Below, piece by piece: positions 1 to 16,063 of a stretch of 64,000 nucleotides of DNA. The DNA is taken from assembly GCA_013152275.1 (NCBI GenBank), contig JAADGS010000028.1, positions 1 through 64,000 of the forward strand. Reading direction: 5' to 3'. The DNA comes from Actinomycetota bacterium (GTDB taxonomy: Bacteria > Actinomycetota > Acidimicrobiia > Spongiisociales > UBA4744). The notes under the pieces were generated by a model. That model saw nothing but the letters and a program-made list of their open reading frames with translations. It did no database searches and was not told the DNA's origin. Numbering within the stretch: the first letter of the stretch is position 1; each line of letters opens with the position of its first letter. Both the position numbers and the translations under genes were made by a program.

Positions 1-2
1 TC

Positions 3-104
3 CGACACGACGCCGGATGGACCTACCAGCCCCTCCCCGACGGCGACCACCACTGGACCACCAAACTCGGCCACACCTACACCACCAGCGGTGCGCCGCC
101 CTGA
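3..104 (+). CDS. 3' end of a probable DUF222/HNH endonuclease-family protein (partial, runs off window)
   Basis: Manual translation RHDAGWTYQPLPDGDHHWTTKLGHTYTTSGAPP*. The GW...DG...WT..GHTY pattern is typical of actinobacterial DUF222-HNH C-termini. Confidence 0.65.
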   Translation, partial: RHDAGWTYQPLPDGDHHWTTKLGHTYTTSGAPP

Positions 105-167
105 CCGCCGTCACCCGCCCCAGGATCCCGATACTGTTCGAGGTAGGCTCCTCCTAAAAGGGACACG

Positions 168-998: not shown

Positions 999-1309
999 GC
1001 TCCTCCCTCGATCACGCTGCCGGGCGAACGCGATCTTCTTGGCGGCGTACCGATCCCCACCCTTGCCCGAGCGATATGCAGACCCATGGCCATGTTCTCG
1101 TTGTCCATCGCCGCATCGATGGGAATCTCCGGCGACGACCCGATACCACCGACCCACCGTGACGATGGCCGGTCACCGCTCCTTGTCGACCGGCAGGTGT
1201 TCCGTCCGACATCTCCACCACGCCAATCACTCGTAACACACCACTATCTTGCCTTGTTGAGCTTGGGCCCGGTCACCGAGGTCGAAACTGTCCAGCTGAC
1301 TGCGACACG

Positions 1310-1381
1310 GCACATAGGTGCATAATCAATGCACATATGTGCATGCACCCGTTGACGCGCCCGTGAGTACAGGCATACAGT
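1310..1381 (+). promoter_or_regulatory. Tandem palindromic operator and sigma70-type promoter of the PTS operon
   Basis: Perfect 16-bp palindrome ATGCACATATGTGCAT (1329-1344) and near-copy GCACATAGGTGCAT (1310-1323), 21 bp apart. TTGACG (1352-1357), N18, TACAGT (1376-1381). Confidence 0.7.
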
Positions 1382-1431
1382 CTCTGCAAGTGATCTACTC
1401 ACGCTGACTGCGGGTATCTGGGAGGGTATTC

Positions 1432-2409
1432 ATGCCTGCGAGCGAGGAACGGCTCGAGTTGTTGGGCCAGATTGTCGTCTGGTATTACGAAGAGAATCTC
1501 GACCAGCGCGAGATCGCTCTTCGCATCGGAAAGTCGCGGTCGATGGTCTCCCGTCTGTTGCATGAGGCCCGGGATGCCGGATTGGTTCAAATCCGGGTCA
1601 AGTTCCCGTTGCGCTCATGTCCAGATCTGGAAGAGCGACTCGTGGAACGTTTCGGGTTGATGGAAGCTCGAGTACTCGATAACCGTGGTCTTGTGTACGA
1701 AACACTTCTCGCTCGCGTAGGCCGTCTGGCCGCACGGTCTCTGCAAGGTCATCTCCACTCCGACATGCGTATTTCCGTCGGTTGGGGAGCCTCCCTTTTC
1801 CATGTCGTGAGAGCGATGCCGGAGATACAACTTCGGGGAGTCTCGGCCGTGCAGATGATGGGCTCTATCGGCCAAGGCGACCCGGCCATCGACGGTTCCG
1901 GCATCGTCAGGCTGCTTGCCGAGAAGCTGAATGGTGACTATCACTTCCTGGCGACTCCTCTTCTCGTGGACCAGGAGGAAACCGCCCAATCACTCCTCTC
2001 TCAGCGGGCGATCAGCCACACATTGGACCTTGCCCGAAGAAGTGACGTGGCCATCACGGGTATCGGATCAGTCGGTCAGATTCCGGGTATTGTCCGTGCC
2101 GGATACTTCGACCAGGCGACGATCACCGAGCTGCAAGAACGCGGCATCGTGGGAGATCTGTTGGGGTTCTTGTTCGATGATCAGGGACGCCCTGCCGATC
2201 TGCCTCAGAACCGGCGAGTCGTGGCCATGCCGCTGGAAGACCTCACGTCCATACCGTTTGTCATGGGGGTCGCTGCCGGGAAAGGGAAGGCGACTGCGAT
2301 CCTCGCGGTACTCAGAGGGGGGTATCTCAACGGCCTCGTTACCGATTCCACCGCTGCCGAGGCGATCCTCCATATCGACGCAAACAAGAGTGTCAGCGAG
2401 GTGGCTTGA
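1432..2409 (+). CDS. SorC/DeoR-type sugar-binding transcriptional regulator
   Basis: N-terminal HTH (YYEENLDQREIA...SRSMVSRLL), GWGASL, and C-terminal sugar-binding domain (VAAGKGKA...LVTD). Confidence 0.92.
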   Translation: MPASEERLELLGQIVVWYYEENLDQREIALRIGKSRSMVSRLLHEARDAGLVQIRVKFPLRSCPDLEERLVERFGLMEARVLDNRGLVYETLLARVGRLAARSLQGHLHSDMRISVGWGASLFHVVRAMPEIQLRGVSAVQMMGSIGQGDPAIDGSGIVRLLAEKLNGDYHFLATPLLVDQEETAQSLLSQRAISHTLDLARRSDVAITGIGSVGQIPGIVRAGYFDQATITELQERGIVGDLLGFLFDDQGRPADLPQNRRVVAMPLEDLTSIPFVMGVAAGKGKATAILAVLRGGYLNGLVTDSTAAEAILHIDANKSVSEVA

Positions 2410-2846
2410 TGTTCGAATCCAAGACGATCGCCCTACTCGTCGTTCTCGTGGTTGCCTGGCTCATCCAGCTCGGTCTCTCCACTTGGCAAATGCATCGATT
2501 CCATTCACGTGCACTGTCTCTACGCCGCCTCGGAAGCGCCATGTCCATCGGCATGGCAGGCTCGAATTGGAAACGCAAGACCTATGTCGTCGTGGTCATC
2601 GATCAGTCCGACGTAGTCATTGCTTCAGAACGCCTCGCCGGTTTCACCATCTTCGCCGGTTTGAAGCCCGTTTCAAACGTCATCGGCCTCCGGCTCGATG
2701 ATCTTGGCATCGGAACTCCCCCTGCCGGAGTGAGCGAAAAGACCTGGAGAGCATTCGAACAGGCGGCCGGCTTTCTGCAGAGGGCAAGAGACAAGCGCTC
2801 CAGATCGATGGAATCGAGGGTGGACGGATCCGAGGAGGATGGCTGA
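2409..2846 (+). CDS. gutM: GutM/SrlM-family glucitol operon activator-like protein
   Basis: N-terminal hydrophobic helix ending WLIQLGLSTWQM, LAGFTIFA motif; lies before PTS glucitol genes; ATG overlaps the upstream stop. Confidence 0.75.
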   Translation: MFESKTIALLVVLVVAWLIQLGLSTWQMHRFHSRALSLRRLGSAMSIGMAGSNWKRKTYVVVVIDQSDVVIASERLAGFTIFAGLKPVSNVIGLRLDDLGIGTPPAGVSEKTWRAFEQAAGFLQRARDKRSRSMESRVDGSEEDG

Positions 2847-2925
2847 ATGACATAGCGCGCACGTGAGACCGGTTATCGCAGCGGACCGAAAGTAAACAGA
2901 CGCTGTCAGTCTGAGAGGAGAGACA

Positions 2926-3471
2926 ATGCAATTACTAGCAAGTTGGGCTGAAGCTTTCATCGGTGTCTTCAAGCAAGGTGCCGATGTCTTCTCCGGTCTG
3001 CTGGTCGGAATCGTCCCACTGCTCATCGTGCTGCTTACCGGCGTGAACGCGTTGATTGCGCTCATCGGGCCGGAACGCGTGAACAAGTTCGGTGAATGGG
3101 CAGCTCGCGAGGGGATCATCTACTACCCGATCAGGTATGTGGTCTGGCCCGTGCTCTCGGTGTTCTTCCTTACGAACCCGATGGCATACACCAACGGCCA
3201 GTTCCTCCCGGAGAAGTACAAGCCGGCGTTCTATGACGCTGCGGTGTCGTATGTGCATCCCCCGCTGGGGATCTTCCCGCACATCAACCCGGGAGAGCTC
3301 TTCGTTTGGCTCGGCATTGCGACCGGCATCGAGGCCCTTGGGTTGAATGTCACGGACCTTGCCGTCCGCTACTTGCTCACCGGACTCCTGGTCATTCAGA
3401 TCCGGGGAATCGTAACCGAGCGGATCACTGCCTTCCTGTGGAAGCGCAGCGGCCTGATCCCAGCCGCCTGA
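2926..3471 (+). CDS. srlA: PTS glucitol/sorbitol-family IIC component
   Basis: [18 protein letters not shown] and [16 protein letters not shown] motifs; strong RBS. Confidence 0.92.
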
Positions 3472-3487
3472 TCGAGGAGGATTGAAT

Positions 3488-4018
3488 ATGCAAGATTTCT
3501 TGACTCGACTTGGCAAGGGAACCGGCTTGGTGGTCGGAGCCCTGTTTCAGGCAGGACGTGATGCCGTAGACATCGTGTTGAAGACCGTGATTCCGTTCAT
3601 GGCATTCATCGCCTTCGTCATCGGCATCATCCTCGCAACAGGCGTCGGAGACTGGCTGGCCAACGGCCTCAAAGGCTTGGCCAGCAACGTGATTGGACTC
3701 CTCATCCTTTCGGTGATCATCGGTTTTCCGCTGCTTTCACCGCTGCTGGGACCTGGAGCAGTCATAGCGCAGATCATCGGTACACTTATCGGTGTTGAGA
3801 TCGGCCGAGGGAACATCTCGCCAACCATGGCGCTGACGGCCTTGTGGGCCATCAATCCCCAGGTTGGGTGTGACTTCATCCCGGTGGGTCTCGCGCTCGG
3901 AGAAGCAGAACCAGAGACGGTAGAGATCGGGGTACCGGCAGTGCTGTTCTCCCGGATGATCACGGGCCCGATAGCCGTGGTGATCGGGTGGGCAGCCAGT
4001 ATCGGAATGTACGCCTGA
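3488..4018 (+). CDS. srlE: PTS glucitol-family IIBC, C-terminal membrane domain encoded as a separate gene
   Basis: [16 protein letters not shown] and [32 protein letters not shown] motifs; RBS GAGGAGG. Confidence 0.88.
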
Positions 4019-4041
4019 TCGAGAGAGGAGGCGTTGTCCGA

Positions 4042-4590
4042 ATGGGTTTTCTGAAACGGCTCAAGAAGTCCCCCAAAGAAGCTGCTGAAACAACGGAGGA
4101 TGCGACTCGACCCGAGGCCGAAGAGATACCGGCCGCGGACGCAGAGTCCGCTCCAGACGAGGCCGGCGAGACCGTCGAGGTCTCCGCCGAGCCTGCGCAG
4201 CCTTCGCCTCCTCCCGGAGGGTATCGGAAGGTGCACGTCGGACGCGGTATGAAAGGATGGGGCACAGGACTGGTCATCCAGCCCGAGCCGGGAAGGGATC
4301 TGATCTACTCCGTGACCGGAGGAGGAATCCACCCAGTCGCGCAGCGCATCGCAGACCTCACCGGCGGGAGACCATTCGACGGCTTCAAGTCGAAAGCGGG
4401 CTTCAACGAGATTGCAGTCGCTGTCATCGACTGCGGTGGAACGGCTCGCATCGGTGTCTACCCCATGAAAGGTGTGCTGACCGTCGACGTGCACGGGGCG
4501 AGTCCCTCGGGTCCGTTGGCGCGGTTCATCACCGAGGAGAACTTCGTCTCGGGGGTTTCTGTCGATGACATCTCCTTGATCGAGGACTGA
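4042..4590 (+). CDS. srlE: PTS glucitol-family IIB (SrlE N-terminal domain) with acidic/Pro-rich leader
   Basis: GWG, VTGGGIHPVAQRIA, DGFK, DCGGTARIGVYP (phosphorylatable Cys), PSGPLARFITE..VSGV; own RBS (GAGGAGG). Confidence 0.88.
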   Translation: MGFLKRLKKSPKEAAETTEDATRPEAEEIPAADAESAPDEAGETVEVSAEPAQPSPPPGGYRKVHVGRGMKGWGTGLVIQPEPGRDLIYSVTGGGIHPVAQRIADLTGGRPFDGFKSKAGFNEIAVAVIDCGGTARIGVYPMKGVLTVDVHGASPSGPLARFITEENFVSGVSVDDISLIED

Positions 4591-4604
4591 GGAACGTCCG
4601 ACAC

Positions 4605-4635
4605 GATGGGATCCGGTCGACCACCGGATCCCATC
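4605..4635 (+). other. Intra-operon stem-loop (13-bp perfect stem)
   Basis: GATGGGATCCGGT-CGACC-ACCGGATCCCATC between the IIB and IIA genes. Confidence 0.6.
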
Positions 4636-4682
4636 CCACTCTCGATGGGCCTGGCCTACGGCCGGGTTGGGTGACTAATGCC

Positions 4683-5057
4683 ATGACCACCGTCAAATAC
4701 GAAGCCGCCGTGATCAGCGTAGGGGAAATGGCTGACGCGTTCGCCGCAGAAGGCATCCTGGTGTTCTTCGGCGAAGAGGCGCCTGAAGAACTCCACGAGT
4801 TCGCCATTCTCATCGATCACGACACGCTGCATGCCCCGGTCGAGGCCGGTGACATCCTCCAGATTGGCACAGAGCCGTACCCGGTGCTCTGTGTGGGAGA
4901 CGTCGCAAACGAGAACCTGGCCGCCCTGGGACATCTCGTCGTCAAGTTCAACGGGCGCACCGAGCCCGAACTCCCCGGAGACGTGAGCGTCCCCGAAGTT
5001 CCGGCACCGAACGTAACGCCAGGCACCGTTGTGCGAATTCTCAAAGGAGAGCATTGA
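4683..5057 (+). CDS. srlB: PTS glucitol/sorbitol-family IIA component
   Basis: FGEEAPEEL, VGDVANENLAALGH (phospho-His) and ELPG motifs. Confidence 0.9.
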   Translation: MTTVKYEAAVISVGEMADAFAAEGILVFFGEEAPEELHEFAILIDHDTLHAPVEAGDILQIGTEPYPVLCVGDVANENLAALGHLVVKFNGRTEPELPGDVSVPEVPAPNVTPGTVVRILKGEH

Positions 5058-6346
5058 TGCTGTTACCGCTACTGAAGTCGCGCGACGAGCGCGGGGAGAT
5101 CGTGCGCATCGGTCTTGCAGGCGCCGGCCAGATGGGTGAAGGCCTGGTCAGTCAGATGGAGACCATCTACGGCATGCGTGTGGTCGTCGTGGCCGACGTC
5201 GTACCCGGCCGTGCCACGGAAGTCTTCCTTTCCGCCGGTGTGGACGGAGCAGACATCATCGAGACCGAGGATCCCGACAAGGCTGCAGATGCCGTGCGTG
5301 CCGGCAAGCGTGTTGCCACCACCAGAACCCACCTCGCCGCAACGACCGAGCCGCTGGATGTGGTCGTCGAAGCGACAGGAATCCCAGATGTCGGCGCCCG
5401 TGTCGCCTATCACGCGATTCTGGCGGGCAAGCACGTCATGCAGATGAATGTCGAGACCGATGCCACCGTCGGCTACATTCTTCGCAAGATGGCCAATGCT
5501 GCCGGCATCGTCTACACGCTGACCGGAGGTGATGAGCCGGGCGCCACGATGGAGCTCTACGACTTCGCCACCAGTCTCGGATTCAAGGTCGTCGCCGCCG
5601 GCAAAGGAAAGAACAATCCGCTCGACCGCACGGCGAACCCCGATTCCATGGCCGAGACGGCACGGGACCGCAAGATGAATCCGAAGATGCTCGCCTCCTT
5701 CGTCGACGGCACCAAGACGATGGTGGAGATGACATCGCTGGCCAACGGCATCCAATTCATACCCGACGTACGGGGAATGCACGGACCCCATGTGACACAA
5801 GACACGCTGGCCCAAACGTACGTTCCTCGAGAGGCCGGAGGCATCGAGTCACACGAAGGGGTGGTCGACTTCGGCCTGGGGATCGCCCCCGGCGTGTTCG
5901 TGACATTCACGACGGACCATCCAAAACTGATACGTGATCTTCAATACCTGTCGATGGGTCCTGGACCGTACTGGGCGCTCTATCGCCCATACCATCTGAC
6001 GAGCCTGGAGACACCCGTGTGGATCGCCCGAGCTGCAATCATGGGCGAAACGACTCTCGCTACCGATGCTCCTCCAACGGCCGAGGCCATCACGGTGGCC
6101 AAGAGGCCTCTGGAAGCCGGTGAAACCATCGATGGTCTCGGCGGCTTCACCGTCTACGGACTGATAGAACGCGCCGATACCGCACGCCGGCAGCACCTTC
6201 TCCCTCTGGGTTTGGCACCGGGATCGAAAGTTCTGCGAGATATCGAAATGGGCGAAACCCTCACCTATGACGATGTCGCGCTGGACGAGTCGCTCACCGT
6301 CGTCAACCTGAGAAGGCTCCAGGATCTCGAAACGGCCGAGCACTGA
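5057..6346 (+). CDS. Homoserine-dehydrogenase-like NAD(P) oxidoreductase with C-terminal SAF domain (DXR-II/DRL family)
   Basis: GAGQMG, MNVETD, GDEPG, AGKGKNNPL, SFVDGTKTMVEM, GMHGP, LYRPYHL and SAF-type C-terminus (AKRPLEAGETIDGLGG). Confidence 0.85.
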   Translation: MLLPLLKSRDERGEIVRIGLAGAGQMGEGLVSQMETIYGMRVVVVADVVPGRATEVFLSAGVDGADIIETEDPDKAADAVRAGKRVATTRTHLAATTEPLDVVVEATGIPDVGARVAYHAILAGKHVMQMNVETDATVGYILRKMANAAGIVYTLTGGDEPGATMELYDFATSLGFKVVAAGKGKNNPLDRTANPDSMAETARDRKMNPKMLASFVDGTKTMVEMTSLANGIQFIPDVRGMHGPHVTQDTLAQTYVPREAGGIESHEGVVDFGLGIAPGVFVTFTTDHPKLIRDLQYLSMGPGPYWALYRPYHLTSLETPVWIARAAIMGETTLATDAPPTAEAITVAKRPLEAGETIDGLGGFTVYGLIERADTARRQHLLPLGLAPGSKVLRDIEMGETLTYDDVALDESLTVVNLRRLQDLETAEH

Positions 6347-6351
6347 AGCCC

Positions 6352-6942
6352 ATGGGAGGGCTACTCCGGCGAATCATGCGCCGCTCGGTCGATCGCGCCG
6401 TCCAGATGCAACCGCGGCGCGTCGATCGTATCCGTAACGACCTCCTCTACGCCGCCCCCTCGGAACGTGACCTGGTCGCGGAGATTCGTCGCGCCGGTGA
6501 ACGTCTCCTGGCAGCCGGATTGGCTCCCCCGACGCTGGGAGCGCTCGCCGTCCGTCGATCCGCCAAGTCGGCCACGCGAACCGCGGTTGGTACCGACCTT
6601 GGCTGCATCGACAATCGAGCACTGGACACGGTTCCGATCAATGATTCTGAGCCGCTGGTGACTGCCCTTGCATCCCACGAGGCGGCAGCATGGGGAGTGC
6701 CGCCCATGTTGCTGACCCTCGCCGAGAGTGGTCGTGTGCCGGACGCTGTCGTGGATTCCATGAGCGAAGCTGCAGGTTCCATCCGATTGGGTGTGGCGAC
6801 AGGACCCTTTCCAGAAGGTGTCACCGTGATCCGAGGGATTGGCGTAGTGGCCGCCGGGCGCGATCTGGACGATGCGGTCACACGGCTCGAAGCCGCCGAG
6901 ATTCTGGCCACGATCACCGTGCATATGACCGACAGGAGTTGA
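6352..6942 (+). CDS. Class II aldolase/adducin-fold protein, degenerate
   Basis: LVAEIRRAGERLLAAGL...GALAVR and GVVAAGRDLDDAVTRLEAAE patterns, but the metal-binding His residues are missing. Confidence 0.55.
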   Translation: MGGLLRRIMRRSVDRAVQMQPRRVDRIRNDLLYAAPSERDLVAEIRRAGERLLAAGLAPPTLGALAVRRSAKSATRTAVGTDLGCIDNRALDTVPINDSEPLVTALASHEAAAWGVPPMLLTLAESGRVPDAVVDSMSEAAGSIRLGVATGPFPEGVTVIRGIGVVAAGRDLDDAVTRLEAAEILATITVHMTDRS

Positions 6943-6946
6943 ACAG

Positions 6947-7219
6947 ATGGTTGAGACGACGGTCACCGTGAGACATGAAGTCGGACTGCACGCACGTCCG
7001 GCTGCGATATTTGTCAAGACCGCCCAAGGATTCGACAGCTCCATCACGCTCACGAATCTCACTCGTGGGAGTGACCCGGTTGATGCAAAGAGCATCATCG
7101 CCGTGTTCAAGATCGCGATAGCGAAGGACCATGAGGTTCGCATCCAGGCGGACGGACCCGACGAAGAGGCGGCTCTGCAATCACTCAAAGGACTCATCGA
7201 AAGTAACTTCGGAGAATGA
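6947..7219 (+). CDS. ptsH: Phosphocarrier protein HPr
   Basis: GLHARPA (His15) and DAKSI (Ser46 equivalent). Confidence 0.95.
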   Translation: MVETTVTVRHEVGLHARPAAIFVKTAQGFDSSITLTNLTRGSDPVDAKSIIAVFKIAIAKDHEVRIQADGPDEEAALQSLKGLIESNFGE

Positions 7220-8913
7220 ACCGCATCATGCACGGTGTCCCGGCGGCCGGTGGTATCGCCATCGGACCGGCGTTCGTATATCGACCGGAGATGCCCGAGA
7301 TTCCAGAAGGCCCCGTCGACGACATCCCCGCAGAGCAGGCGCGTCTGCTCGCCGCAATCGCAGCCGTCGATCGGCGCCTCGGTGAGCTCGAGGCAATCAC
7401 CGCCGGCCAGGCCGGAGACACTGCCGCCGAGATATTCGAGGTGCATCGAATGTTCTTGGCAGACCCGGCGATCTCTGCCAAGGCGGCCGACATGATCGCC
7501 ACCGAGGCGGCCACCGCCGAGGCTGCAGTGGTCGCGGTCACGGGAGCACTTGCCGACGAGTTCGCCTCCATCGGTGACGACTACTTTGCCCAGCGGGCGA
7601 TCGACGTGCGAGACATCGGACAGCAACTCGTGCGCGAGCTGATGGGGCTGGGCGCCGGAGGATTGTCGGAAGTCACCGTGCCGTCGGTTGTCATCGCCGA
7701 CGATCTGACACCGTCGGACACCATGTCACTTCCGGAGGGAACGGCGTTGGCTTTCTGCACCAAGGAAGGGAGCGCCACCTCCCATGCGGCGATTCTGGCC
7801 CGGTCGATGGGGATCCCGGCGATCGTCGGGCTCACGAACCTCGACGTTTCCACCGGTACGACGGTCGGGGTGGATGGTGATGCCGGTCTTCTCTACATCG
7901 ACCCCGACCCGGAACAACTCGCCGCTCTGCGCAAGAAGCGTGGACAACAAGTCCGACTCCTCACGGTCGCTGCCGAACGCGCCTCAGAACCGGCGGTCAC
8001 CACGGATGGGCATCGCCAGGAGGTCGTGGCCAATATCGGTAGCGTCACAGACGCCGAACGCGCCGAGCGGTCGGGAGCCGAGGGTGTGGGGCTGCTTCGA
8101 ACAGAGTTCCTGTTCCTCGATCGGGGAACCCTCCCCACCGAAGATGAGCAATACGAGGCCTATCGGTCGATTCTCGAGATCTTTGGCGACCGTCCCGTCG
8201 TGGTGAGGACTCTCGACGTGGGCGGCGACAAGCAGGTGCCCGGCATCGATCTCGAGAACGAGCTGAACCCGTTTCTCGGCAGACGCGGGATCCGCCTGAC
8301 CCTGGCAGAGCCCGACCTCTTCCAGACACAACTTCGAGCCCTCCTGCGCGCCGGAGTCCACGGCAATCTCAAGATCATGTTCCCGATGGTGGCCACCCTG
8401 GCCGAAGTCGAAGCGGCACGAGCAGCAGTCGACACGGCAGCGGCCACGCTCGACGGCCGCGGTGCGGAGCGGACGGCCTCCTTCGAAGTCGGAATCATGA
8501 TCGAAGTACCTTCGGCGGCACTCATCGCCGGTGCACTTGCACCACGGCTGGATTTCTTCTCGATCGGAACGAATGATCTGACCCAATACACATTGGCGGT
8601 CGATCGGACGAACCCAACGGTCGCGACCATCGGCGACCCGCTCCATCCCGCAGTTCTGCGCCTGATCCAGATGGTCGTCGAAGCCGCCCACACGCACGGA
8701 AAGTGGGTTGGAATGTGTGGAGAGATGGCAGGAGATCCCCTGGCGGTCCCGGTACTGCTGGGTCTCGGCATCGACGAGTGGTCCATGAACCCACCATCGA
8801 TCAGCATCGTGAAGGATCGCATCAGGTCATGGTCCACGGACGCTGCCAGAAAGGTCGCCGACCGCTGCCTTCGGGCATCCTCGACCGCAGAGGTGAGAGA
8901 CATCTTGACCTGA
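7216..8913 (+). CDS. ptsI: PEP-protein phosphotransferase (Enzyme I)
   Basis: TSHAAILARS, GVGLLRTEFLF, RTLDVGGDK, SIGTNDLTQY and GMCGE motifs. Confidence 0.96.
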   Translation: MNRIMHGVPAAGGIAIGPAFVYRPEMPEIPEGPVDDIPAEQARLLAAIAAVDRRLGELEAITAGQAGDTAAEIFEVHRMFLADPAISAKAADMIATEAATAEAAVVAVTGALADEFASIGDDYFAQRAIDVRDIGQQLVRELMGLGAGGLSEVTVPSVVIADDLTPSDTMSLPEGTALAFCTKEGSATSHAAILARSMGIPAIVGLTNLDVSTGTTVGVDGDAGLLYIDPDPEQLAALRKKRGQQVRLLTVAAERASEPAVTTDGHRQEVVANIGSVTDAERAERSGAEGVGLLRTEFLFLDRGTLPTEDEQYEAYRSILEIFGDRPVVVRTLDVGGDKQVPGIDLENELNPFLGRRGIRLTLAEPDLFQTQLRALLRAGVHGNLKIMFPMVATLAEVEAARAAVDTAAATLDGRGAERTASFEVGIMIEVPSAALIAGALAPRLDFFSIGTNDLTQYTLAVDRTNPTVATIGDPLHPAVLRLIQMVVEAAHTHGKWVGMCGEMAGDPLAVPVLLGLGIDEWSMNPPSISIVKDRIRSWSTDAARKVADRCLRASSTAEVRDILT

Positions 8914-8921
8914 CTGAAGGA

Positions 8922-10094
8922 TCAGCCTTCGAGATGTCGAGCGAACGTCTCGAGGAACCTCGCCCCGTCGGCTCCGTCGGCCACCCTATGGTCCACCGTG
9001 AGTCCGACCTCACAGGTGAGCGCCGCCTTCACTCCACCATCCGCCGTTGCCACCGGCCGCATCCGAATGCTCCCCACCGACAGGATCGCAGCCTGCGGTG
9101 GGAAGACCAGAGCGGCGAATACATCGACCCCGAGACCGCCGAGGTTCGAGAGGGTGATCGAAGGCTGCGCCATGTCTTCCTGGCTGGGCGAACCGATCCG
9201 GGCCCGCTCGAGAGTCGAGCGCACGATACGATCTGCCTCGTCCGGATCGACGAGGTCGGGATCCGATACCGCTGCGACGATCAGTCCCACGTTCGGTCGG
9301 TCGATCGCCACTCCGATCCGAACCGTGTCGAACGGCACGGGTTCTCGCTGCCGGTCGTCCCACCGGCTGTTCACCTCGGGATGCTCTCGCAGCGCGCCGG
9401 CGAGCGCCCTCACGAGTTCGGTCGTCCAACTGCGACCGCCTTTGTGCGCTGCGGCGCGATCGAGAACGATCGTTCGGTACAGCGTGAACTGAGGGATCGC
9501 CGCGGACCTGCCCATGATCTCGGCGGTGGCTCGACGCACCGAGAGCTTCCTCGCGGTATCGACCGGCATCGCCGAACTCTGGGACGGAGCAGGAGTCTGC
9601 TCAGGGACACGATCGGCATGCTCTCCAGGGCGAGCCTCGCGTCGCCGAACGAACGCCTCCACGTCGGCCGAAGTCACTTGACCACGTGCCCCCGTGGGCT
9701 CGACCTCGGCCAGATCGACACCCAGCCGGCGGGCGAGTAGTCGCGCCGGTGGCGCTGCCGGCACGATGCCGTGTGAAGCCTCTGCGGACGCAGGTGGTGA
9801 CGGCTCGCGCTCGGTCAGCTCCAATCCGGCGAGCAGGTCGCCGGTCTCGGACGCAATCGTGGCGATGGTGGCGCCCAGCGGAACCACCGTGCCGGGCTCG
9901 ACCAGCAACTCGACCACCGTGCCTTCGTACGGGGACACCAGCTCCATGTCGACCTTGTCCGTCGCCACGTCGGCGATCGGCCGACCTTCCGACACGTGAT
10001 CACCGGGTGCGACGAACCACTCGAGGATGGTCGCCTGTTCCATCGTCGCGGTCATGGCAGGCAGGCGAATCTCGAGGATGTTCTCGCCGGTCAT
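8922..10094 (-). CDS. Dihydrolipoamide acyltransferase (E2)
   Basis: Lipoyl motif ATDKVDM, E3-binding domain (PPARLLARRLGVDL...TGARG), catalytic DHRVADG. Confidence 0.92.
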   Translation of the reverse strand: MTGENILEIRLPAMTATMEQATILEWFVAPGDHVSEGRPIADVATDKVDMELVSPYEGTVVELLVEPGTVVPLGATIATIASETGDLLAGLELTEREPSPPASAEASHGIVPAAPPARLLARRLGVDLAEVEPTGARGQVTSADVEAFVRRREARPGEHADRVPEQTPAPSQSSAMPVDTARKLSVRRATAEIMGRSAAIPQFTLYRTIVLDRAAAHKGGRSWTTELVRALAGALREHPEVNSRWDDRQREPVPFDTVRIGVAIDRPNVGLIVAAVSDPDLVDPDEADRIVRSTLERARIGSPSQEDMAQPSITLSNLGGLGVDVFAALVFPPQAAILSVGSIRMRPVATADGGVKAALTCEVGLTVDHRVADGADGARFLETFARHLEG

Positions 10095-11083
10095 GCGTTC
10101 ATCAGCTCCTTGGCAGACCGCTCGATATCATCTACCTGAGGAATCGTTGCCCGTTCCAGCTCCTTGGCATACGGCATCGGATTGTCTCTTCCGCACACAC
10201 GCCGTACCGGAGCGAGGAGGTAGTCGAGCGCGTCGGATTCGACCACTCCTGCAACGACTTCGGCACCGACGCCCACTGCGGTCGGCGCCTCGTGGCCGAC
10301 GAGGAGTCTCCCCGTCTTCCTCACCGACCCACGGACGGTTTCGATGTCGAGTGGCCGCACCGTCCGCAGATCGACGACTTCCGCGTCGATGCCCGCATCG
10401 GCAAGTCTCTTCGCCGCCTCCAGCGCCTTGACCGTCATGATCGAATACGCGGCGATCGTCAGATCGGTGCCATGACGAACGACCTTGGCTTCGCCGATTC
10501 GCGCGGGCGTGTCGGCAATACGGGCTCTCGATTCGAAAGGACCTTCGGTCTTGTACAGGAGCTTGTGCTCGACGAACACCACCGGATTCGGATCCAACAC
10601 CGATGCCAGCAACAGGTCGTGTGCGTCTTGCGGAGTGGCGGGCAGCACGACCTTCAGCCCCGGCACATGCGCGAACCAGGCCTCGAGACTCTGGCTGTGT
10701 TGAGCGGCTCCGGTCCCGCCACCCCCGGCCGCTCGCACGACCATCGGGACATCGACGTGTCCTCCGTACATGAAGTGCAGCTTCGCCGCCTGATTCACGA
10801 GGGGATCCATTGCGTTCACGATGAAATCGAAGAACTGCACTTCCACCACGGGTCTCAGCCCGGTGATGGCGGCGCCGACCCCCAGTCCGACGATGACCTC
10901 CTCGGAGATCGGTGTATCCCGAACTCGGTCCTCCCCGAACTCCTGGACGAGTCCGTCGGTGATGCCGAATGCCCCGCCGTAGATGCCGATGTCTTCACCG
11001 GCGAGGAATACTCGGGGGTCCTCCGTCAGCAGCAGCCGGAGCGCTGCTCCGACGGCCTTCGCGTACGAACTCGTCTCAGGCAT
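10091..11083 (-). CDS. TPP-dependent dehydrogenase E1 beta subunit (AcoB/PdhB-like)
   Basis: GEDIGIYGGAF, DTPISE, AAQHSQSLEAWF and DLRTVRPLD motifs. Confidence 0.93.
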   Translation of the reverse strand: MPETSSYAKAVGAALRLLLTEDPRVFLAGEDIGIYGGAFGITDGLVQEFGEDRVRDTPISEEVIVGLGVGAAITGLRPVVEVQFFDFIVNAMDPLVNQAAKLHFMYGGHVDVPMVVRAAGGGGTGAAQHSQSLEAWFAHVPGLKVVLPATPQDAHDLLLASVLDPNPVVFVEHKLLYKTEGPFESRARIADTPARIGEAKVVRHGTDLTIAAYSIMTVKALEAAKRLADAGIDAEVVDLRTVRPLDIETVRGSVRKTGRLLVGHEAPTAVGVGAEVVAGVVESDALDYLLAPVRRVCGRDNPMPYAKELERATIPQVDDIERSAKELMNA

Positions 11084-12056
11084 ACGTGGCTCCCTCCAAG
11101 TCGTCTACGAGCGCGGGTGGTGCCTTGTAGGCAGCCGCCACCGCCGCTCGTATTCGCTCACGAGCCGCCGCCTGTACGGCGGCGATGTCCCCGTCTCCGA
11201 GCCAGGCGAGTGAGCGAAGACGCTGCTCATAGAGCATGAGCGGATCTTTCGTGGTGCGCCATTCGTCGATCTCCTGCTGTGTCCTGTAGAGATTGCGATC
11301 CGACTTCGAGTGGCCCCTGTAGCGGTAGGTGACGAATTCCAACAGACTCGGCCCTTCGCCCGATCGGGCACGCTCCACGGCCTCTTTCGAGTGTTCGAAC
11401 ACCGCGACCACGTCGTTGCCGTCCACCTGGACGCCAGGCATGCCGTAGGCGGATGCGCGGTTCGCCACCGACCCTCCGGCCGTCGACTTCTCCTGGGCCA
11501 TGGACATCCCGTACTGATTGTTCTCGCAGGCGAACACGACGGGAAGTGACCAGATCGATGCAAGATTGAGCGCCTCGTGGAACGCACCTTCGTTCGCGGC
11601 ACCGTCTCCGAAGAAACAGGCGACGACCTTTCCGGTCTCCTGCAATCGCTGCGAGAGAGCTGCACCCGTGGCGATGGTCATCGATCCGGCGACGATTCCG
11701 TTGGCGCCGAGGTTTCCGCTGTCCACATCCGCGATGTGCATCGATCCGCCTCGGCCCCGGCAGTATCCCGTATCTTTCATCAGGAGTTCGGCCAGCATCC
11801 GCTCGGGGTCTGCCCCGTGGGCGAGGGCGTGGCCATGACCTCGGTGTGTCGAGGTGATGAAGTCACCCTCGTCGAGAGCGTCACAGACCCCCACCGCCAC
11901 GGCCTCCTGGCCGATCGTGAGATGCATCGTGCCGTGCAAGAGCCCTCTCGAGAAGAGCTCTTCGACCGCTTCTTCGAAGATGCGTATCGACCACATTCCC
12001 TTGAGTACATCGGCCGCCTGGGCGGCATCGGTTGGATCCATTCTTGCCATACTCAT
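11076..12056 (-). CDS. TPP-dependent dehydrogenase E1 alpha subunit (AcoA-like)
   Basis: HLTIGQEA, STHRGHGH, GRGGSMHIAD, TPP motif GDGAANEG...ENNQY, TYRYRGHS. Confidence 0.93.
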   Translation of the reverse strand: MSMARMDPTDAAQAADVLKGMWSIRIFEEAVEELFSRGLLHGTMHLTIGQEAVAVGVCDALDEGDFITSTHRGHGHALAHGADPERMLAELLMKDTGYCRGRGGSMHIADVDSGNLGANGIVAGSMTIATGAALSQRLQETGKVVACFFGDGAANEGAFHEALNLASIWSLPVVFACENNQYGMSMAQEKSTAGGSVANRASAYGMPGVQVDGNDVVAVFEHSKEAVERARSGEGPSLLEFVTYRYRGHSKSDRNLYRTQQEIDEWRTTKDPLMLYEQRLRSLAWLGDGDIAAVQAAARERIRAAVAAAYKAPPALVDDLEGATYA

Positions 12057-12997
12057 TCCCTCACATACCTGCGGGCCGCCTCACCGTGGAGTGCCGCTGC
12101 CGCAGCCGATTGATCACATACGAGGACATCGAGAAGCCCACCGGTCAAGGACGCGGCGATCGCCTGGCCCTTTGCCACTCCGGCGGCGACACCGACGACA
12201 CAGGGAATCGCCCGCAGCTGATCGAGACTCAACGCGACGACCCGACGGCTGAGCGGTCCCTGGAGCTCCTCTCCACCCTGATCGATGAGCCGGGCGCAGA
12301 TCACCGCCTCCGGTTTCATCGACCCCTGATAGCCGGCCGCGATGGCTCGTTCCGCGAAACCTTCTCCAGGTATGCCGATACCGACCAGCGCGATACTTGC
12401 GGAGCGGGCGAACTCGAGCTCGGTTCGTATCCTGGGGTCGGAAAGGAGCTCCTCGGCGACCGCCTCGTCCTCGACGAGGGCGGGTGCGTGCAAGAAGCGA
12501 TGGCGGCCACCCAACGCCTCGGCCAGCATCCGAACGAGTTCGTGGCCCGACGCGGCCGGTGCCATGGTCAGATCCCCACCGACTTGCACAACCTCGATGT
12601 CCCGAGGCTCCTCCACCGCAACGTTGCGGACGGTCGCCTCGACGCTGCGCCCCCAACCGATGGCGACCCGATCGCCATCGCCGACGTGTCCCACGAGCCA
12701 CTCGGCGGCAAGATGCCCCACCGAAGCGAGCGTGTCGCCACCAGCAACCAGCACTATCGCCTCACGTATCCCGAAGCGTTCAACGAGCTCCTGCTCCAAG
12801 GCTCCGTGACGTCGCAGTGGATGATCTATCACGAACCGGATCACACCTTCGCGACGCGCGGCATCGAGCAACCGGGACACGTTGGATCGACTCGTGCCCA
12901 GATGGTGGGCGATTCGGTCCTGCGACCAGCCCTCTATGTAGTAGCGCTCCGCGGCCTCGGCGAGACGACCGCGACGACTTATCGACTCAGAAATCAC
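12053..12997 (-). CDS. Second SorC/DeoR-type sugar-binding regulator
   Basis: YYIEGWSQDRIA...SRSNVSRLL HTH, GWGRSV and VAAGVAKG motifs. Confidence 0.9.
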   Translation of the reverse strand: MISESISRRGRLAEAAERYYIEGWSQDRIAHHLGTSRSNVSRLLDAARREGVIRFVIDHPLRRHGALEQELVERFGIREAIVLVAGGDTLASVGHLAAEWLVGHVGDGDRVAIGWGRSVEATVRNVAVEEPRDIEVVQVGGDLTMAPAASGHELVRMLAEALGGRHRFLHAPALVEDEAVAEELLSDPRIRTELEFARSASIALVGIGIPGEGFAERAIAAGYQGSMKPEAVICARLIDQGGEELQGPLSRRVVALSLDQLRAIPCVVGVAAGVAKGQAIAASLTGGLLDVLVCDQSAAAAALHGEAARRYVRE

Positions 12998-13022
12998 AAC
13001 TGTGACATGGTATCACAATTGC

Positions 13023-13745
13023 TCAGCCGTCGGTATTCCAGCTTCCGCCGTGCCAGTCGTAGGCAAGGTCCTCGGCGACGAAGATATCCTCGACGAACGT
13101 GACCTTGATGTTCCGGGGATCGCCCGGAACGTAGCGAATGGGAAGATCGCTGAAACGCTCGACGGTCTCCGCGGTGTCGACACCCTCGAATCCGGCCCTC
13201 TCTGCCCGCCGATAGGCGTGAAGGAGCGGCAGCGCGTGGAAACCCTGGGGTGTTTGCACCTTCCGAAGATCTCCCTCGGCGAGGGACACGATAATCCCGT
13301 CCTTCGTCTGATAGAGGGGCTCTTCGGGGACGTAGCCCGGAATCGCCCCGCCGTCGCGACGTGCACGTGCGATGACGAGTTCGAGGAGCTTGGTGGACAT
13401 GAACGGCCTCGCCCCGTCATGGATGACGACACAATCGATCTCGCCCGATTCGATCCGATCCGCCAGAGCCGCAAGACCCTCGTATTCACTCGCCTGGCGA
13501 GTTGGGCCTCCCTCCACGATCATCGTCGGTGTTCCCGCCTCGTTCTGTTGCACGAGTAGTTCCGCCTGTTCACGATCCACCTCGCGAATCACGAGGACGA
13601 TGACATCCACCGCGTCGGAGCGGCCCATCGTGTCGAGCGAATAGGCCAGCATCGGACGACCCCGAATGGGCAGATACACCTTGTTGATGTCGATCCTTGC
13701 CCTGGAACCCGACCCTCCGGCAAGGAGAATGGCGGCAGTCGTCAT
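13023..13745 (-). CDS. ispD: 2-C-methyl-D-erythritol 4-phosphate cytidylyltransferase (IspD/TarI family)
   Basis: LAGGSGSR...NK, GGPTRQAS, HDGARPF, VQTPQGF and NIKVT motifs. Confidence 0.85.
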   Translation of the reverse strand: MTTAAILLAGGSGSRARIDINKVYLPIRGRPMLAYSLDTMGRSDAVDVIVLVIREVDREQAELLVQQNEAGTPTMIVEGGPTRQASEYEGLAALADRIESGEIDCVVIHDGARPFMSTKLLELVIARARRDGGAIPGYVPEEPLYQTKDGIIVSLAEGDLRKVQTPQGFHALPLLHAYRRAERAGFEGVDTAETVERFSDLPIRYVPGDPRNIKVTFVEDIFVAEDLAYDWHGGSWNTDG

Positions 13746-13808
13746 GTGCGTGCATCCGGCACTAGCAGAGAGGTATCCGACGAAACACGCTCTACACTAG
13801 TTGGCTCC

Positions 13809-14342
13809 ATGCGATTTCCACCTGTCACAAGCCCACACATGCTCCGCCCCTTCGGCTCCCGCCAACTCGGATTGTGGGGCGATCGGGAGCACGTCGTCGT
13901 CTTTGCCGTCATGGGCGGCCGCTTCGCCGGACCTACGCTCCAAGTGCACGCACCCACACTCCTGCAACGCCTGGAGCAGCTGTCGCCCGATATCGACACC
14001 CTCGTGTTCGTGGACGAACCGTTCCCGGACAGTGCGATGGTCGAGAGAATCGACGACATGCTCGAACAGTTTGCATCTCAGCAGGTCGACGCACTCGCGG
14101 CCTACGTGGCTGCCACCGAAGCCATAAAGCGGGTGCATGGGGATCAGGTCCTCCACGGCGTCGACCGTTCCACACTGATCGCGGTGAAGGGGCCCGAGAT
14201 CATCTCCCGAGAGGCGCTGGTTCGTGCAGTGGACATCATGGACTCCCGACCGTGGACCTGCCCGTTGCTTCTCGTGGCGCGCTCCGGGGGGCGCGTGGCG
14301 CGATATCAGGGTCCGATCATGAAGGACGAGAACGCGCGTTGA
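13809..14342 (+). CDS. Degenerate IspD-like protein (C-terminal half similarity only; start uncertain)
   Basis: ATEAIKRVHGDQVLHGVDRSTLIAVKGPEI matches the IspD DTIKRV...DR..L...QTPQ arm by eye; no GxGxR motif. Confidence 0.55.
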   Translation: MRFPPVTSPHMLRPFGSRQLGLWGDREHVVVFAVMGGRFAGPTLQVHAPTLLQRLEQLSPDIDTLVFVDEPFPDSAMVERIDDMLEQFASQQVDALAAYVAATEAIKRVHGDQVLHGVDRSTLIAVKGPEIISREALVRAVDIMDSRPWTCPLLLVARSGGRVARYQGPIMKDENAR

Positions 14343-16063
14343 GCGCTCCCCCGTCGACGTTCCGATTCGCCGTCATCGCCGACTCGCACATCCGTCGACA
14401 CGACGGCGGCGGGTACCCCTCCGACGGCGCCATGCTGGAGCGCAACCGATTCGTTGTCGATCTGATCAATCGACTCGGGCCTTCGTTCGTCATCCACCTC
14501 GGAGATATCGTCCATCCTCTTCCGGTCGAAGCCGGGCACGAAGCCGCGGTGCGCCTCGCCGCCGATCTCTACCAGGGCATCGAGGTTCCCCTGCATCACC
14601 TGCCCGGCAACCACGATGTCGGGGACAAGCCGAATCCGCAGGTCGCGGTGCCGCCGGTAGACGACGCCGCCTACGACGTTTTCGAACGGCACTGGGGGCC
14701 TGCCTACAGGTCGTTCGACCACGACGGCTGCCACTTCGTGCTCATCGACACTCCCATCCTCAACTCGGGGCTCGAGAGAGAGCGTCGGCAGCGCCGCTGG
14801 ATAGAGAACGACCTTGCCGCAGCGGCGGGACGGCGTATCTTCCTGTTCAGTCACTATCCGCCGTTCATCCGCGACCGAAACGAGGCCGAGAACTACGACA
14901 ATCTTGCAGAGCCGGCAAGATCCTGGCTCATCGACCTTGTCGAACGGCACTCCGTCGAAGCATGGTTCTCCGGGCATGTCCACAACTTCCTGTACAACCG
15001 TCACCGCTGCGACTTCTACGCTCTCCCGTCTACGGGCTTCGTGCGACCGGACTACTCGGAACTGGCGGCGATCCCACCCGAGGCAGAAGCAGGACGCGAC
15101 GATCGCGCGAAGCTGGGATTCTTCATCGTCGACGTCACCTCGGACGGACACGTCGTCCGGCCGGTTCGCACCTACGGATGCACAACGACCGATCGCCTTC
15201 CGGTACCGGCCGAAACGTCGGCGGCGTCGGACTGGACCTGTCCGGTCGGGGTCACGCTCCGCCACGACTGGATGGCCACGGTCGGTTTGCCGACCGATGG
15301 GCTCGACCCGTTCGTGCGAAAGATGGTCCGCAACGACTACCCCCTGCTCGCCCTCCAGGAGTCGAGGATCACCGATGTTCGTGTTCCGGCGGAGGACATC
15401 ATGTCCGCCGATCGGCGTCGACGCCTCACCGATCTCGGCCGGCTGGGGTTGCGTTTCACCGTCTTCTCGGTGGGACCACCCGACGCTGCGATCGTGAGCG
15501 CCATCGACGAGAGCACACCTGCCGTCGTCCGCTGGGAGATCATCATCCAACCGGACCGGATCGAACCCGTGCTCTCGAACCTCGGCCGATCTCCGGTTCC
15601 CAGGGCCCTCGCCCCCATCGTCCCCATCGGATCAGGCGGTATCCAACACTTCGTCACACACGGGTTCGATCCGCGGGCCGACGATCTCCTTTCCCGTTCC
15701 GTGGACGCAGGGGCCGCAGAGTTGTTCGAGGAGTTCGTCTACCGGGTCGCGCCCGGTCACCCCGTCGAGAAAGCCGCCTCCCTGGCGATCCGGTCCGCTC
15801 GAGCGATCGGCATCGGAGCATCGATGATCATCGAGATGCCTCGCGGCGGCGAGGCCGATGTGTTCGACGACGATGAGCAGATCGCGCATCGGGCCATTGA
15901 AGCGTCGGCCGCACGTCTACGGCATCCCGACATCCCGATGTTCCTCGACGGCTTCATGGATCACGACCGTGGCTACTACCGCCGTCACGGTCTCATCGAC
16001 CGCCGATGCAACCCCCGACCGGCGCTGCACGCGCTGATCAACTTCGCGAGATCTCCCCGCTGA
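14339..16063 (+). CDS. Calcineurin-like metallophosphoesterase with large C-terminal domain
   Basis: DSH, LGD, GNHD, FSH and GHVH motifs. The TTG start overlaps the upstream stop; the ORF-track N-terminal extension is probably spurious. Confidence 0.85.
   Translation: MSAPPSTFRFAVIADSHIRRHDGGGYPSDGAMLERNRFVVDLINRLGPSFVIHLGDIVHPLPVEAGHEAAVRLAADLYQGIEVPLHHLPGNHDVGDKPNPQVAVPPVDDAAYDVFERHWGPAYRSFDHDGCHFVLIDTPILNSGLERERRQRRWIENDLAAAAGRRIFLFSHYPPFIRDRNEAENYDNLAEPARSWLIDLVERHSVEAWFSGHVHNFLYNRHRCDFYALPSTGFVRPDYSELAAIPPEAEAGRDDRAKLGFFIVDVTSDGHVVRPVRTYGCTTTDRLPVPAETSAASDWTCPVGVTLRHDWMATVGLPTDGLDPFVRKMVRNDYPLLALQESRITDVRVPAEDIMSADRRRRLTDLGRLGLRFTVFSVGPPDAAIVSAIDESTPAVVRWEIIIQPDRIEPVLSNLGRSPVPRALAPIVPIGSGGIQHFVTHGFDPRADDLLSRSVDAGAAELFEEFVYRVAPGHPVEKAASLAIRSARAIGIGASMIIEMPRGGEADVFDDDEQIAHRAIEASAARLRHPDIPMFLDGFMDHDRGYYRRHGLIDRRCNPRPALHALINFARSPR

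Follow-up and report, generated by a model that had tools for sequence, protein, structure and literature searches.

The window analysed here is the first 64 kb (64,000 nucleotides) of contig C8 (JAADGS010000028.1) in the 3.07-Mb, 100-contig genome of an Actinomycetota bacterium of the class Acidimicrobiia (GCA_013152275.1). Near its left end lies an island of two convergent operons. One encodes a phosphotransferase system (PTS) of the Gut family together with an oxidoreductase of the DXR-II type (DRL), a kind of reductoisomerase acting on DXP (the 5-phosphate of 1-deoxy-D-xylulose), and the other encodes a thiamin diphosphate (ThDP)-dependent E1/E2 complex. We suggest that the island may serve the catabolism of a branched C5 polyol, for which 2-C-methyl-D-erythritol (ME) is the likeliest candidate. 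Genes were called from a listing of open reading frames (ORFs) combined with Pfam and NCBIfam family scans of the window proteins, and the features are the following.

1022 to 13050: the island with both operons, about 12.0 kb; the site is empty in the same-genus genome G136
1318 to 1344: overlapping pair of palindromes, candidate SorC1 operator (GTGCA-N7-TGCAC plus a perfect 16-bp palindrome)
1352 to 1381, plus strand: sigma-70-like promoter match upstream of sorC1 (9 of 12 matches)
1432 to 2409, plus strand: SorC1, regulator of the SorC/DeoR family (PF04198, 231 bits)
2406 to 2846, plus strand: GutM-type activator (PF06923, 67 bits)
2926 to 3471, plus strand: SrlA, IIC component of the Gut-family PTS (NF049923, 223 bits, cut-off 150)
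3482 to 4018, plus strand: C-terminal half of SrlE, the IIC part (NF049924 positions 156-330)
3988 to 4590 (ORF), plus strand: N-terminal part of SrlE, IIB (NF049924 positions 1-121; homology begins at about 4222 and the start codon is uncertain)
4671 to 5057, plus strand: IIA of the SrlB type (PF03829, 107 bits)
5054 to 6346, plus strand: DXR-II/DRL-type oxidoreductase with NAD(P)-binding, DRL catalytic and SAF domains
6352 to 6942, plus strand: class-II-aldolase-fold protein of 196 aa, Zn ligands lost, between DRL and HPr
6947 to 7219, plus strand: HPr (Pfam, NCBIfam; one copy in the genome)
7216 to 8913, plus strand: Enzyme I, EI (TIGR01417, 563 bits, over the cut-off; one copy in the genome)
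8922 to 10094, minus strand: E2 acyltransferase with lipoyl, E3-binding and catalytic domains (Pfam)
10091 to 11083, minus strand: E1beta, ThDP dependent (Pfam, NCBIfam)
11076 to 12056, minus strand: E1alpha, ThDP dependent, in the DRL-linked E1 group (Pfam, NCBIfam, tree)
12053 to 12997, minus strand: SorC2, SorC/DeoR family, opening the E1/E2 operon (Pfam; 41% identical to SorC1)
13001 to 13017: palindrome TGTGA-N7-TCACA in the ispD-sorC2 gap, candidate SorC operator
13023 to 13745, minus strand: IspD (PF01128, 145 bits; TIGR00453, 160.6 bits, under the cut-off of 181.3)

The sequence-only reading of this DNA had described a glucitol-family PTS with its own HPr and EI, a SAF-domain oxidoreductase directly after IIA, a convergent E1alpha/E1beta/E2 set, ispD and two SorC regulators, with no SrlD-like short-chain dehydrogenase/reductase (SDR) in the operon. 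Every gene on that list was found and is apparently intact: the PTS families are matched within the plus-strand operon, the DRL start codon overlaps the IIA stop by 4 bases, the E1/E2 set and SorC2 are matched on the minus strand and SorC1 on the plus strand, and Pfam finds no SDR in the operon. E2, E1beta, E1alpha, sorC2 and ispD converge from the minus strand on the PTS operon, their frames overlapping or nearly abutting, and the diagnostic motifs are preserved (ThDP motif GDG..NN in E1alpha, lipoyl TDKV and catalytic DHRVADG in E2, the HPr histidine and the IIB cysteine). The split and permuted SrlE, the 196-aa aldolase-fold gene and an upstream SDR gene are additions to the earlier list. 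The right end it had placed at 16063 has to be drawn in, because that position takes in a metallophosphoesterase ORF that belongs to the chromosomal backbone and not to the locus. The SDR gene lies at 168-998, 434 bases upstream and outside the island; no sorbitol-6-phosphate dehydrogenase is among the best 25 of the 218 NCBIfam families that it matched.

Structure-sequence match, residues and tree all identify the oxidoreductase as a DXR-II (DRL). Its match to the DRL structure from Brucella (PDB 3UPL/3UPY) has an E value of 1.7e-100 over residues 7-425, and it carries the domains PF21135 (216 bits), PF08666 (27.8 bits) and, weakly, PF03447; the NCBIfam scan assigned it to no family. In the available part of the study by Carretero-Paulet (2013; PMC3847144), K191, K193 and T229 are given as the anchors of substrate and fosmidomycin, G121 and H250 as DXR-II specific, and E174, F178, R320 and Y322 as dimer residues. 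The window protein keeps all of these (Brucella numbering), and V351 is replaced by T. Across 79 aligned DRL rows (78 related loci and the window), G121, K191, K193, T229, R320 and Y322 are invariant in 79/79, and H250 is conserved in 67 and changed in 12. The anchors from R. gallicum, Persicobacter and C. necator N-1 (the last listed as DLO2) show a DLO-type replacement, T229P or T229I. A quick maximum-likelihood tree was built from 88 rows; in it, the window DRL falls into one clade with the DRLs of S. fredii NGR234 and Rhizobium N324, with a value of 100 in the Shimodaira-Hasegawa-like approximate likelihood ratio test (SH-aLRT), and the C. necator N-1 anchor and the Natronococcus and Paracoccus rows lie outside. 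Its nearest relatives are from Acidimicrobiia metagenome-assembled genomes (MAGs). The DXR-II identity proposed from sequence alone is thus upheld by the phylogeny, in which the protein groups with the DXR-II anchor and apart from the DLO-type anchors, its signature residues kept. The DRL of Brucella abortus shares domains, substrate-binding and signature residues and clade with the window protein. However, the known role of DXR-II is biosynthetic, from DXP to MEP (the 4-phosphate of ME), whereas the window gene is tied to a PTS and an E1/E2 set in a genome that also encodes DXR-I. According to the available sections of PMC3847144, DXR-II is present in bacteria that have DXR-I or that lack any MEP pathway. 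A SAF-domain relative (29% identical) without the DXR-II signature residues is encoded on a Paracoccus sp. TOH plasmid (L107, 259-1929), between genes for a tricarboxylate transporter permease and a 3-oxo-tetronate kinase; this context hints at a role of DLO-type members in the breakdown of four-carbon acid sugars.

The PTS is the only one of the genome, in which EI, HPr and each EII part gave a single tblastn hit. Its Gut-family set is complete, with an SrlA-type IIC, an SrlE-type IIBC and an SrlB-type IIA. SrlA scores over the NCBIfam equivalog cut-off for the glucitol PTS, the two SrlE ORFs are each under the whole-protein cut-off, and IIA is over the Pfam but under the NCBIfam cut-offs. 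SrlE is split, with the IIC part ahead of IIB, an order common to most of the Acidimicrobiia, Chloroflexota and Spirochaetota loci; an ordinary fused IIBC is retained in Brevibacillus, Listeria and Ligilactobacillus. The SrlA-, SrlE- and SrlB-type components and GutM are shared with the srlAEBD-gutM-srlR-gutQ operon of E. coli and Salmonella. Unlike that operon, the window locus contains neither SrlD nor GutQ, has a split and permuted SrlE, SorC-type regulators and its own EI and HPr, and includes a dehydrogenase of a different family. The sorbitol PTS of Salmonella reportedly transports ME, as the title of a 2004 paper by Testa that appears in reference lists has it.

The E1/E2 set resembles AcoABC(L), which also consists of a heterotetramer-type ThDP-dependent E1alpha/E1beta and a lipoyl E2 and whose chemistry is the one proposed here, the cleavage of a CH3-CO-CHOH-R acyloin to acetyl-CoA and an aldehyde. 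It differs from AcoABC(L) in having no E3 in the island, SorC in place of a sigma-54 AcoR-type regulator, and a phosphorylated C5 acyloin as its proposed substrate. Candidates for E3 are found on contigs C22 and C92, and LpdA occurs in the cluster versions of Rhizobium N324 and C. difficile. Five other E1 pairs are encoded in the genome, 33-48% identical to the window pair. When the set was tested as a pyruvate dehydrogenase (PDH) complex, E1alpha, E1beta and E2 did not all reach the curated NCBIfam cut-offs: E1alpha (354 bits, cut-off 393.85) and E2 (192 bits, cut-off 445) both fall short, and E1beta passes one PDH subfamily model (348.5 bits, cut-off 321). In the E1alpha tree, the DRL-linked E1alphas stand apart from the five other E1alphas of the genome with moderate support (SH-aLRT 90). 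The window E1alpha is 50-73% identical to the DRL-linked E1alphas versus 39.6% to a plasmid gene that bears the annotation acetoin:DCPIP oxidoreductase alpha and whose neighbourhood is not an acetoin cluster. The idea that E1/E2 substitutes for DXP synthase (DXS) was rejected, as the genome encodes a full DXS (672.7 bits, over the cut-off). Pyruvate and acetoin dehydrogenases are said to form 1-deoxyketoses, according to the title, seen in a reference list, of a 1986 paper by Yokota and Sasajima.

To place the modules in a wider context, we surveyed DRL loci in the genomes of GTDB species, taking the best 80 and counting flanking genes within 10 kb and scoring E1 as linked where E1alpha/beta of at least 45% identity lay within 10 kb of DRL. 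Gut-PTS genes stand directly upstream of DRL in 66 of the 80 loci, and E1alpha/beta is near DRL in 39. Forty-six loci have at least 9 kb on both flanks; 36 of these carry the PTS, 26 of the 36 also carry E1, one has DRL and E1/E2 without a PTS, and nine form the biosynthetic subclade described below. The combination of PTS, DRL and E1/E2 recurs in Acidimicrobiia, Chloroflexota and Spirochaetota, with E1/E2 placed relative to DRL in four ways: in the same operon directly after it, upstream on the same strand, divergent, or convergent. The PTS is absent from L062 and the rhizobial plasmids, which have the order SorC-DRL-E1a-E1b-E2; among the latter is that of S. fredii NGR234 (E1a 58% identical). 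On a plasmid of Rhizobium sp. N324 (L101, 5538-21268), this series continues with LpdA and a class II FBP aldolase, and an ABC transporter, a PfkB sugar kinase and two ORFs without a Pfam family are encoded divergently from the SorC-DRL operon. In this version the kinase would replace the PTS, LpdA would supply E3, and the aldolase would fit a triose-phosphate product. Five carrier genomes without a nearby E1 were searched, and each has an E1alpha match elsewhere, at 69, 55, 54, 52 and 46% identity, the last being ambiguous because it falls inside the paralog range. The expectation of the sequence-only reading that the modules would co-occur in other genomes is therefore borne out, in at least four arrangements and across phyla. 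Within the class, 40 of 251 genomes have a match at E <= 1e-60, and only one besides the genome of the window exceeds 60% identity, which leaves too few close orthologs for a phyletic-profile test.

These data bear on one alternative, namely a chance neighbourhood of an ordinary sorbitol PTS, its dehydrogenase replaced, and a pyruvate or acetoin dehydrogenase of the ordinary kind. SrlA, over the glucitol equivalog cut-off, and E1beta, over a PDH subfamily cut-off, would agree with this. However, the co-occurrence extends across four phyla in varied arrangements, the two operons form one indel block, E1alpha and E2 stay under the PDH cut-offs, and five other E1 pairs are present in the genome. 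Moreover, the available part of PMC4165912 describes the canonical sorbitol operon of L. salivarius, with its SDR dehydrogenase, as a separate locus, and the DRL-linked PTS of that species is therefore probably not for sorbitol. We consider such a chance neighbourhood very unlikely.

In this genus, both operons (1022-13050, about 12.0 kb) are present or absent as a single block. In G136, a genome of the same genus that is 95% complete, contig C37 joins the equivalent of window positions ~967-1021 straight to ~13051 onward with 85-91% nucleotide identity, and the left junction bears an imperfect copy of the ispD 3' end. When the G136 DNA was searched with window 900-13200, nothing was returned beyond the two flanks and some short, weak E1-paralog matches, with no PTS, DRL, EI or E2. 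In G088, from another family, the full block is collinear at about 70% identity. The backbone, made up of ispD, the divergent ORF 13746-14342 and the metallophosphoesterase gene, is kept in G136. The genome, which also has DXS, DXR-I and IspH, yields no real IspD match other than the product of ispD, so ispD is a housekeeping gene; its membership in the island was rejected here for this reason and because the backbone on which it lies is conserved in G136. The sequence-only reading had proposed that IspD could divert MEP to isoprenoids. For the window this part is weakened, since the adjacency of a sole backbone copy is in itself no proof of a dedicated diversion gene. The tie to MEP is stronger in Ktedonobacteria: in both Ktedonosporobacter rubrisoli and Thermogemmatispora aurantia, two IspD proteins are over the family cut-off, one of them encoded in the cluster directly upstream of gutM. 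The ORF at 13746-14342 (plus strand), divergent from ispD, has a weak IspD-like stretch of its own (Pfam E 5e-4, model positions 107-174); it is conserved in G136 and in 10 loci, each time next to ispD. A 105-aa ORF on the minus strand (13742-14059) is probably its shadow.

The direction in which DRL works is suggested by carriers that do not use the MEP pathway. The PTS-DRL-E1/E2 cluster is present on a complete chromosome from Anaerolineales (L056) and in a MAG of the Spirochaetaceae (L024); DXR-I, IspD and IspH were not found in either genome, and HMG-CoA reductase is present in both. Since these organisms are on the mevalonate pathway and without the three MEP-pathway enzymes, the cluster cannot serve isoprenoid synthesis there. 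With MEP of no biosynthetic use, and with DRL standing between the polyol PTS and the ThDP cleavage complex, the enzyme is sensible only as a converter of MEP to DXP. The presence of the cluster in mevalonate-pathway genomes fits a catabolic DRL that runs backwards. In the genome of the window, which has DXS, DXR-I and IspH, the DRL is surplus to biosynthesis. Its ties to the PTS and E1/E2, the presence of DXR-I and the existence of relatives without the MEP pathway together imply the reverse, catabolic direction.

The chemistry of the clade is also illuminated by close relatives. A 21-row Acidimicrobiia DRL clade holds the window protein together with a 9-row subclade, the members of which are 63-66% identical to the window DRL and have neither PTS nor E1/E2 alongside. 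Five genomes of the subclade were searched; IspH was found in 5/5 and DXR-I in 0/5, from which it follows that DRL acts as their DXR. On this comparative evidence, DRL is probably the only DXR of the sister subclade, and this supports DXP/MEP chemistry for the clade as a whole. In the subclade loci (L030, L031, L033, L036, L037, L041, L046, L047 and L058), DRL lies at ~10001-11270 in a context of a mannitol-dehydrogenase-family gene, an IMPase-family gene, DRL and an EI-like gene, with an HPr-like gene near and no EII.

Two further explanations can be weighed against these findings. The locus might serve salvage, ME being phosphorylated to MEP for isoprenoids and DXP being supplied for thiamin and pyridoxal, with E1/E2 an unrelated 2-oxoacid or acetoin dehydrogenase. 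The position of ispD next to the cluster in Acidimicrobiia, the second ispD inside it in Ktedonobacteria and the Firmicutes loci without E1/E2 are in agreement with such a role. However, the cluster persists in the two genomes without IspD, IspH and DXR-I, E1/E2 is linked with DRL in no fewer than four arrangements and likewise in operons that have no PTS, both operons move as one indel block, and the genome already has DXS and DXR-I. We therefore regard salvage as improbable. Alternatively, the PTS might import 1-deoxy-D-xylulose as DXP, which E1/E2 would burn and DRL would convert in the forward direction to MEP for isoprenoids. In this case DXP would be the direct substrate of E1 and DRL would work in the direction for which DXR-II is known. 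This is contradicted by the two mevalonate genomes, in which MEP is useless, a point that counts against imported deoxyxylulose, and yet DRL is kept directly after IIA; furthermore, no other gene is tied as tightly to the PTS as DRL (66/80 loci), and transporters of the Gut family take polyols. Import of deoxyxylulose appears highly improbable to us.

We suggest instead that the island functions as a self-contained unit for the catabolism of a branched C5 polyol, likeliest ME, which would be converted by way of MEP and DXP to acetyl-CoA and glyceraldehyde 3-phosphate (GAP); we lean slightly towards this reading as the correct one. In the first step, EI, HPr, IIA, IIB and the two IICs would import the polyol and phosphorylate it with phosphoenolpyruvate, giving MEP. 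DRL would then turn MEP into DXP. In the third step, E1alpha/E1beta-E2, together with an E3 encoded elsewhere, would attack the methyl-ketone acyloin of DXP by means of ThDP and free GAP, and the acetyl group would be passed by lipoamide to CoA, so that DXP, CoA and NAD+ would yield acetyl-CoA, GAP and NADH. In genomes with the MEP pathway, imported MEP could also reach isoprenoids via IspD, which here is the housekeeping enzyme next door. For the phosphorylation of ME, PMC3994034 names an "ATP-dependant kinase". The sequence-only reading had arrived at the same overall route, and its core is strengthened by the DXR-II type of the oxidoreductase, the co-occurrence of the modules, their gain or loss as one block and the mevalonate-pathway carriers; what is corrected is the place of ispD, which here belongs to the backbone. 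Taken together, the wiring of the modules is well supported by the comparative evidence, and the substrates are putative.

Several observations weigh against this reading. ME and DXP are assigned to the PTS and to E1 by inference, and DXR activity of DXR-II members, in the available part of PMC3847144, was demonstrated by complementation, that is, in the biosynthetic direction only. The DRL tree is a quick one with few anchors on long branches, and the S. fredii NGR234 (DXR-II) and C. necator (DLO2) loci that we fetched are assumed to be the entries of Table 1 in PMC3847144. No E3 gene lies within the island, the top-scoring models for E1alpha and E2 are those of pyruvate dehydrogenase, albeit under their cut-offs, and the E1alpha tree contained no experimentally proven AcoA. 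Among the full-flank PTS loci, 10 of 36 are without E1 within 10 kb, and in Brevibacillus laterosporus, Listeria monocytogenes and Ligilactobacillus salivarius gut-PTS and DRL occur with no E1/E2 within 9-10 kb. On the L. salivarius plasmid (L113, 10001-17572), DRL, gut-PTS, GutM and SorC are followed by fsa and tkt in place of E1/E2, an adjacency that may be chance on a plasmid rich in sugar genes or may reflect another fate of the product. Finally, the proposed route does not account for the conserved aldolase-fold gene. It follows DRL in 31 of the 80 related loci; all 25 of 25 members match PF00596, with a profile E value of 8e-20 against FucA. A canonical Zn aldolase was considered for 6352-6942 and rejected, since the three Zn-binding histidines and the catalytic glutamate are lost (positions H92, H94, H155 and E73), and the Acidimicrobiia members have a deletion around the region of the catalytic glutamate.

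The same architecture might also handle another natural polyol, such as another 2-methyltetrol or branched polyol, or a 1-deoxy-polyol, and DXR would then be only a side activity of the family. The substrate is a matter of inference, H250 varies in 12 of the 79 rows, the aldolase/epimerase-fold gene could adapt stereoisomers, and the pairing of DRL with the PTS alone in Firmicutes recalls ordinary polyol-phosphate dehydrogenases. On the other hand, the fosmidomycin and substrate contacts of DXR-II are kept in all 79 rows, the sister subclade depends on DRL as its DXR, the second ispD inside the Ktedonobacteria clusters encodes an enzyme whose substrate is MEP, and the aldolase-fold protein is without catalytic Zn ligands. 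A different polyol is in our view unlikely, without being far-fetched.

On a wider reading, the cluster would represent a previously undescribed, full pathway for growth on ME with a new DXP dehydrogenase (acetyl-transferring) complex. The burning of ME and not the making of isoprenoids might then be the main reason for the patchy occurrence of DXR-II, and carriers might act as a sink for ME from plants and bacteria, possibly also for isoprene-derived 2-methyltetrols; for this wider proposal we see the chances as evenly balanced. The 2-methyltetrols are oxidation products of isoprene. The proposed route resembles the Lsr autoinducer-2 pathway (LsrK, LsrG, LsrF and LsrR), in which a phosphorylated 1-deoxy-pentulose derivative is converted to acetyl-CoA and a triose phosphate under a regulator of the SorC family. 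The Lsr enzymes differ from those of the window: a kinase and an isomerase work there with a thiolase-like aldolase, and dihydroxyacetone phosphate is the triose formed. ApnO of D-apiose catabolism linearises a branched sugar derivative by an oxidation-coupled skeletal rearrangement, as is proposed here for DRL, whereas its fold (KARI-like) is unrelated to that of DRL. In the available part of a 2026 paper (PMC13753588), ApnO, a D-apionate oxidoisomerase, is called the only oxidoisomerase with a catabolic role; DRL would be a second example. A 2026 review (PMC13001223) states, in its available part, that no pattern accounts for the distribution of Dxr-II, for which ME catabolism would be a simple explanation, and the available sections of PMC3847144 nowhere mention PTS, sorbitol or genomic context. 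Our literature search, which left subscription journals largely uncovered, brought up no publication that deals with ME catabolism or with a DXR-II tied to a PTS or to E1/E2, in agreement with the statement of the earlier reading that no description of the complete route was known. The hypothesis, if true, would add a catabolic pathway and a new class of substrates for ThDP/lipoyl dehydrogenase complexes, and it would bear on the action of fosmidomycin-type inhibitors where DXR-II is not biosynthetic. What the window contributes is the indel of 12 kb, the assignment of ispD to the backbone, the sister subclade with DRL as sole DXR and the mevalonate-pathway carriers. The hypothesis is open to direct testing in cultured carriers.

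The two operons appear to be regulated separately. A single operator common to both was rejected, as two different palindromes were found. Sites of the GTGCA..TGCAC type, like that in front of sorC1 in the window, also occur upstream of sorC1 in L009 and L016. The TGTGA-N7-TCACA palindrome at 13001-13017 is the sole match in the window, and nine loci from spirochaetes and Chloroflexi have TGTGAA..TTCACA-type sites immediately upstream of sorC, three of them in a divergent E1alpha-sorC gap. Because the E1/E2 operon has its own palindrome between ispD and sorC2, with similar sites upstream of sorC elsewhere, it probably has its own SorC-controlled promoter, distinct from that of ispD. SorC1 together with GutM, and SorC2, would switch the operons on via the separate palindromic operators, and the inducers would probably be phosphorylated intermediates. 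SorC1 matches the LsrR model with 164 bits, under the cut-off. The sigma-70-like match at 1352-1381 is the only such site in 900-16200, where 2.3 are expected by chance, and is weak.

Two minor observations concern base composition and the end of the contig. The G+C content is 0.58-0.59 across window 1001-4000, which contains sorC1, gutM and the first PTS genes, versus 0.61-0.68 elsewhere in the first 20 kb. Window positions 1-114 match contig C76 of the same genome (16808-16921) via a contig-start segment of G136 that also overlaps the start of C47, and this stretch is probably an element present in several copies, at which the assembly breaks.

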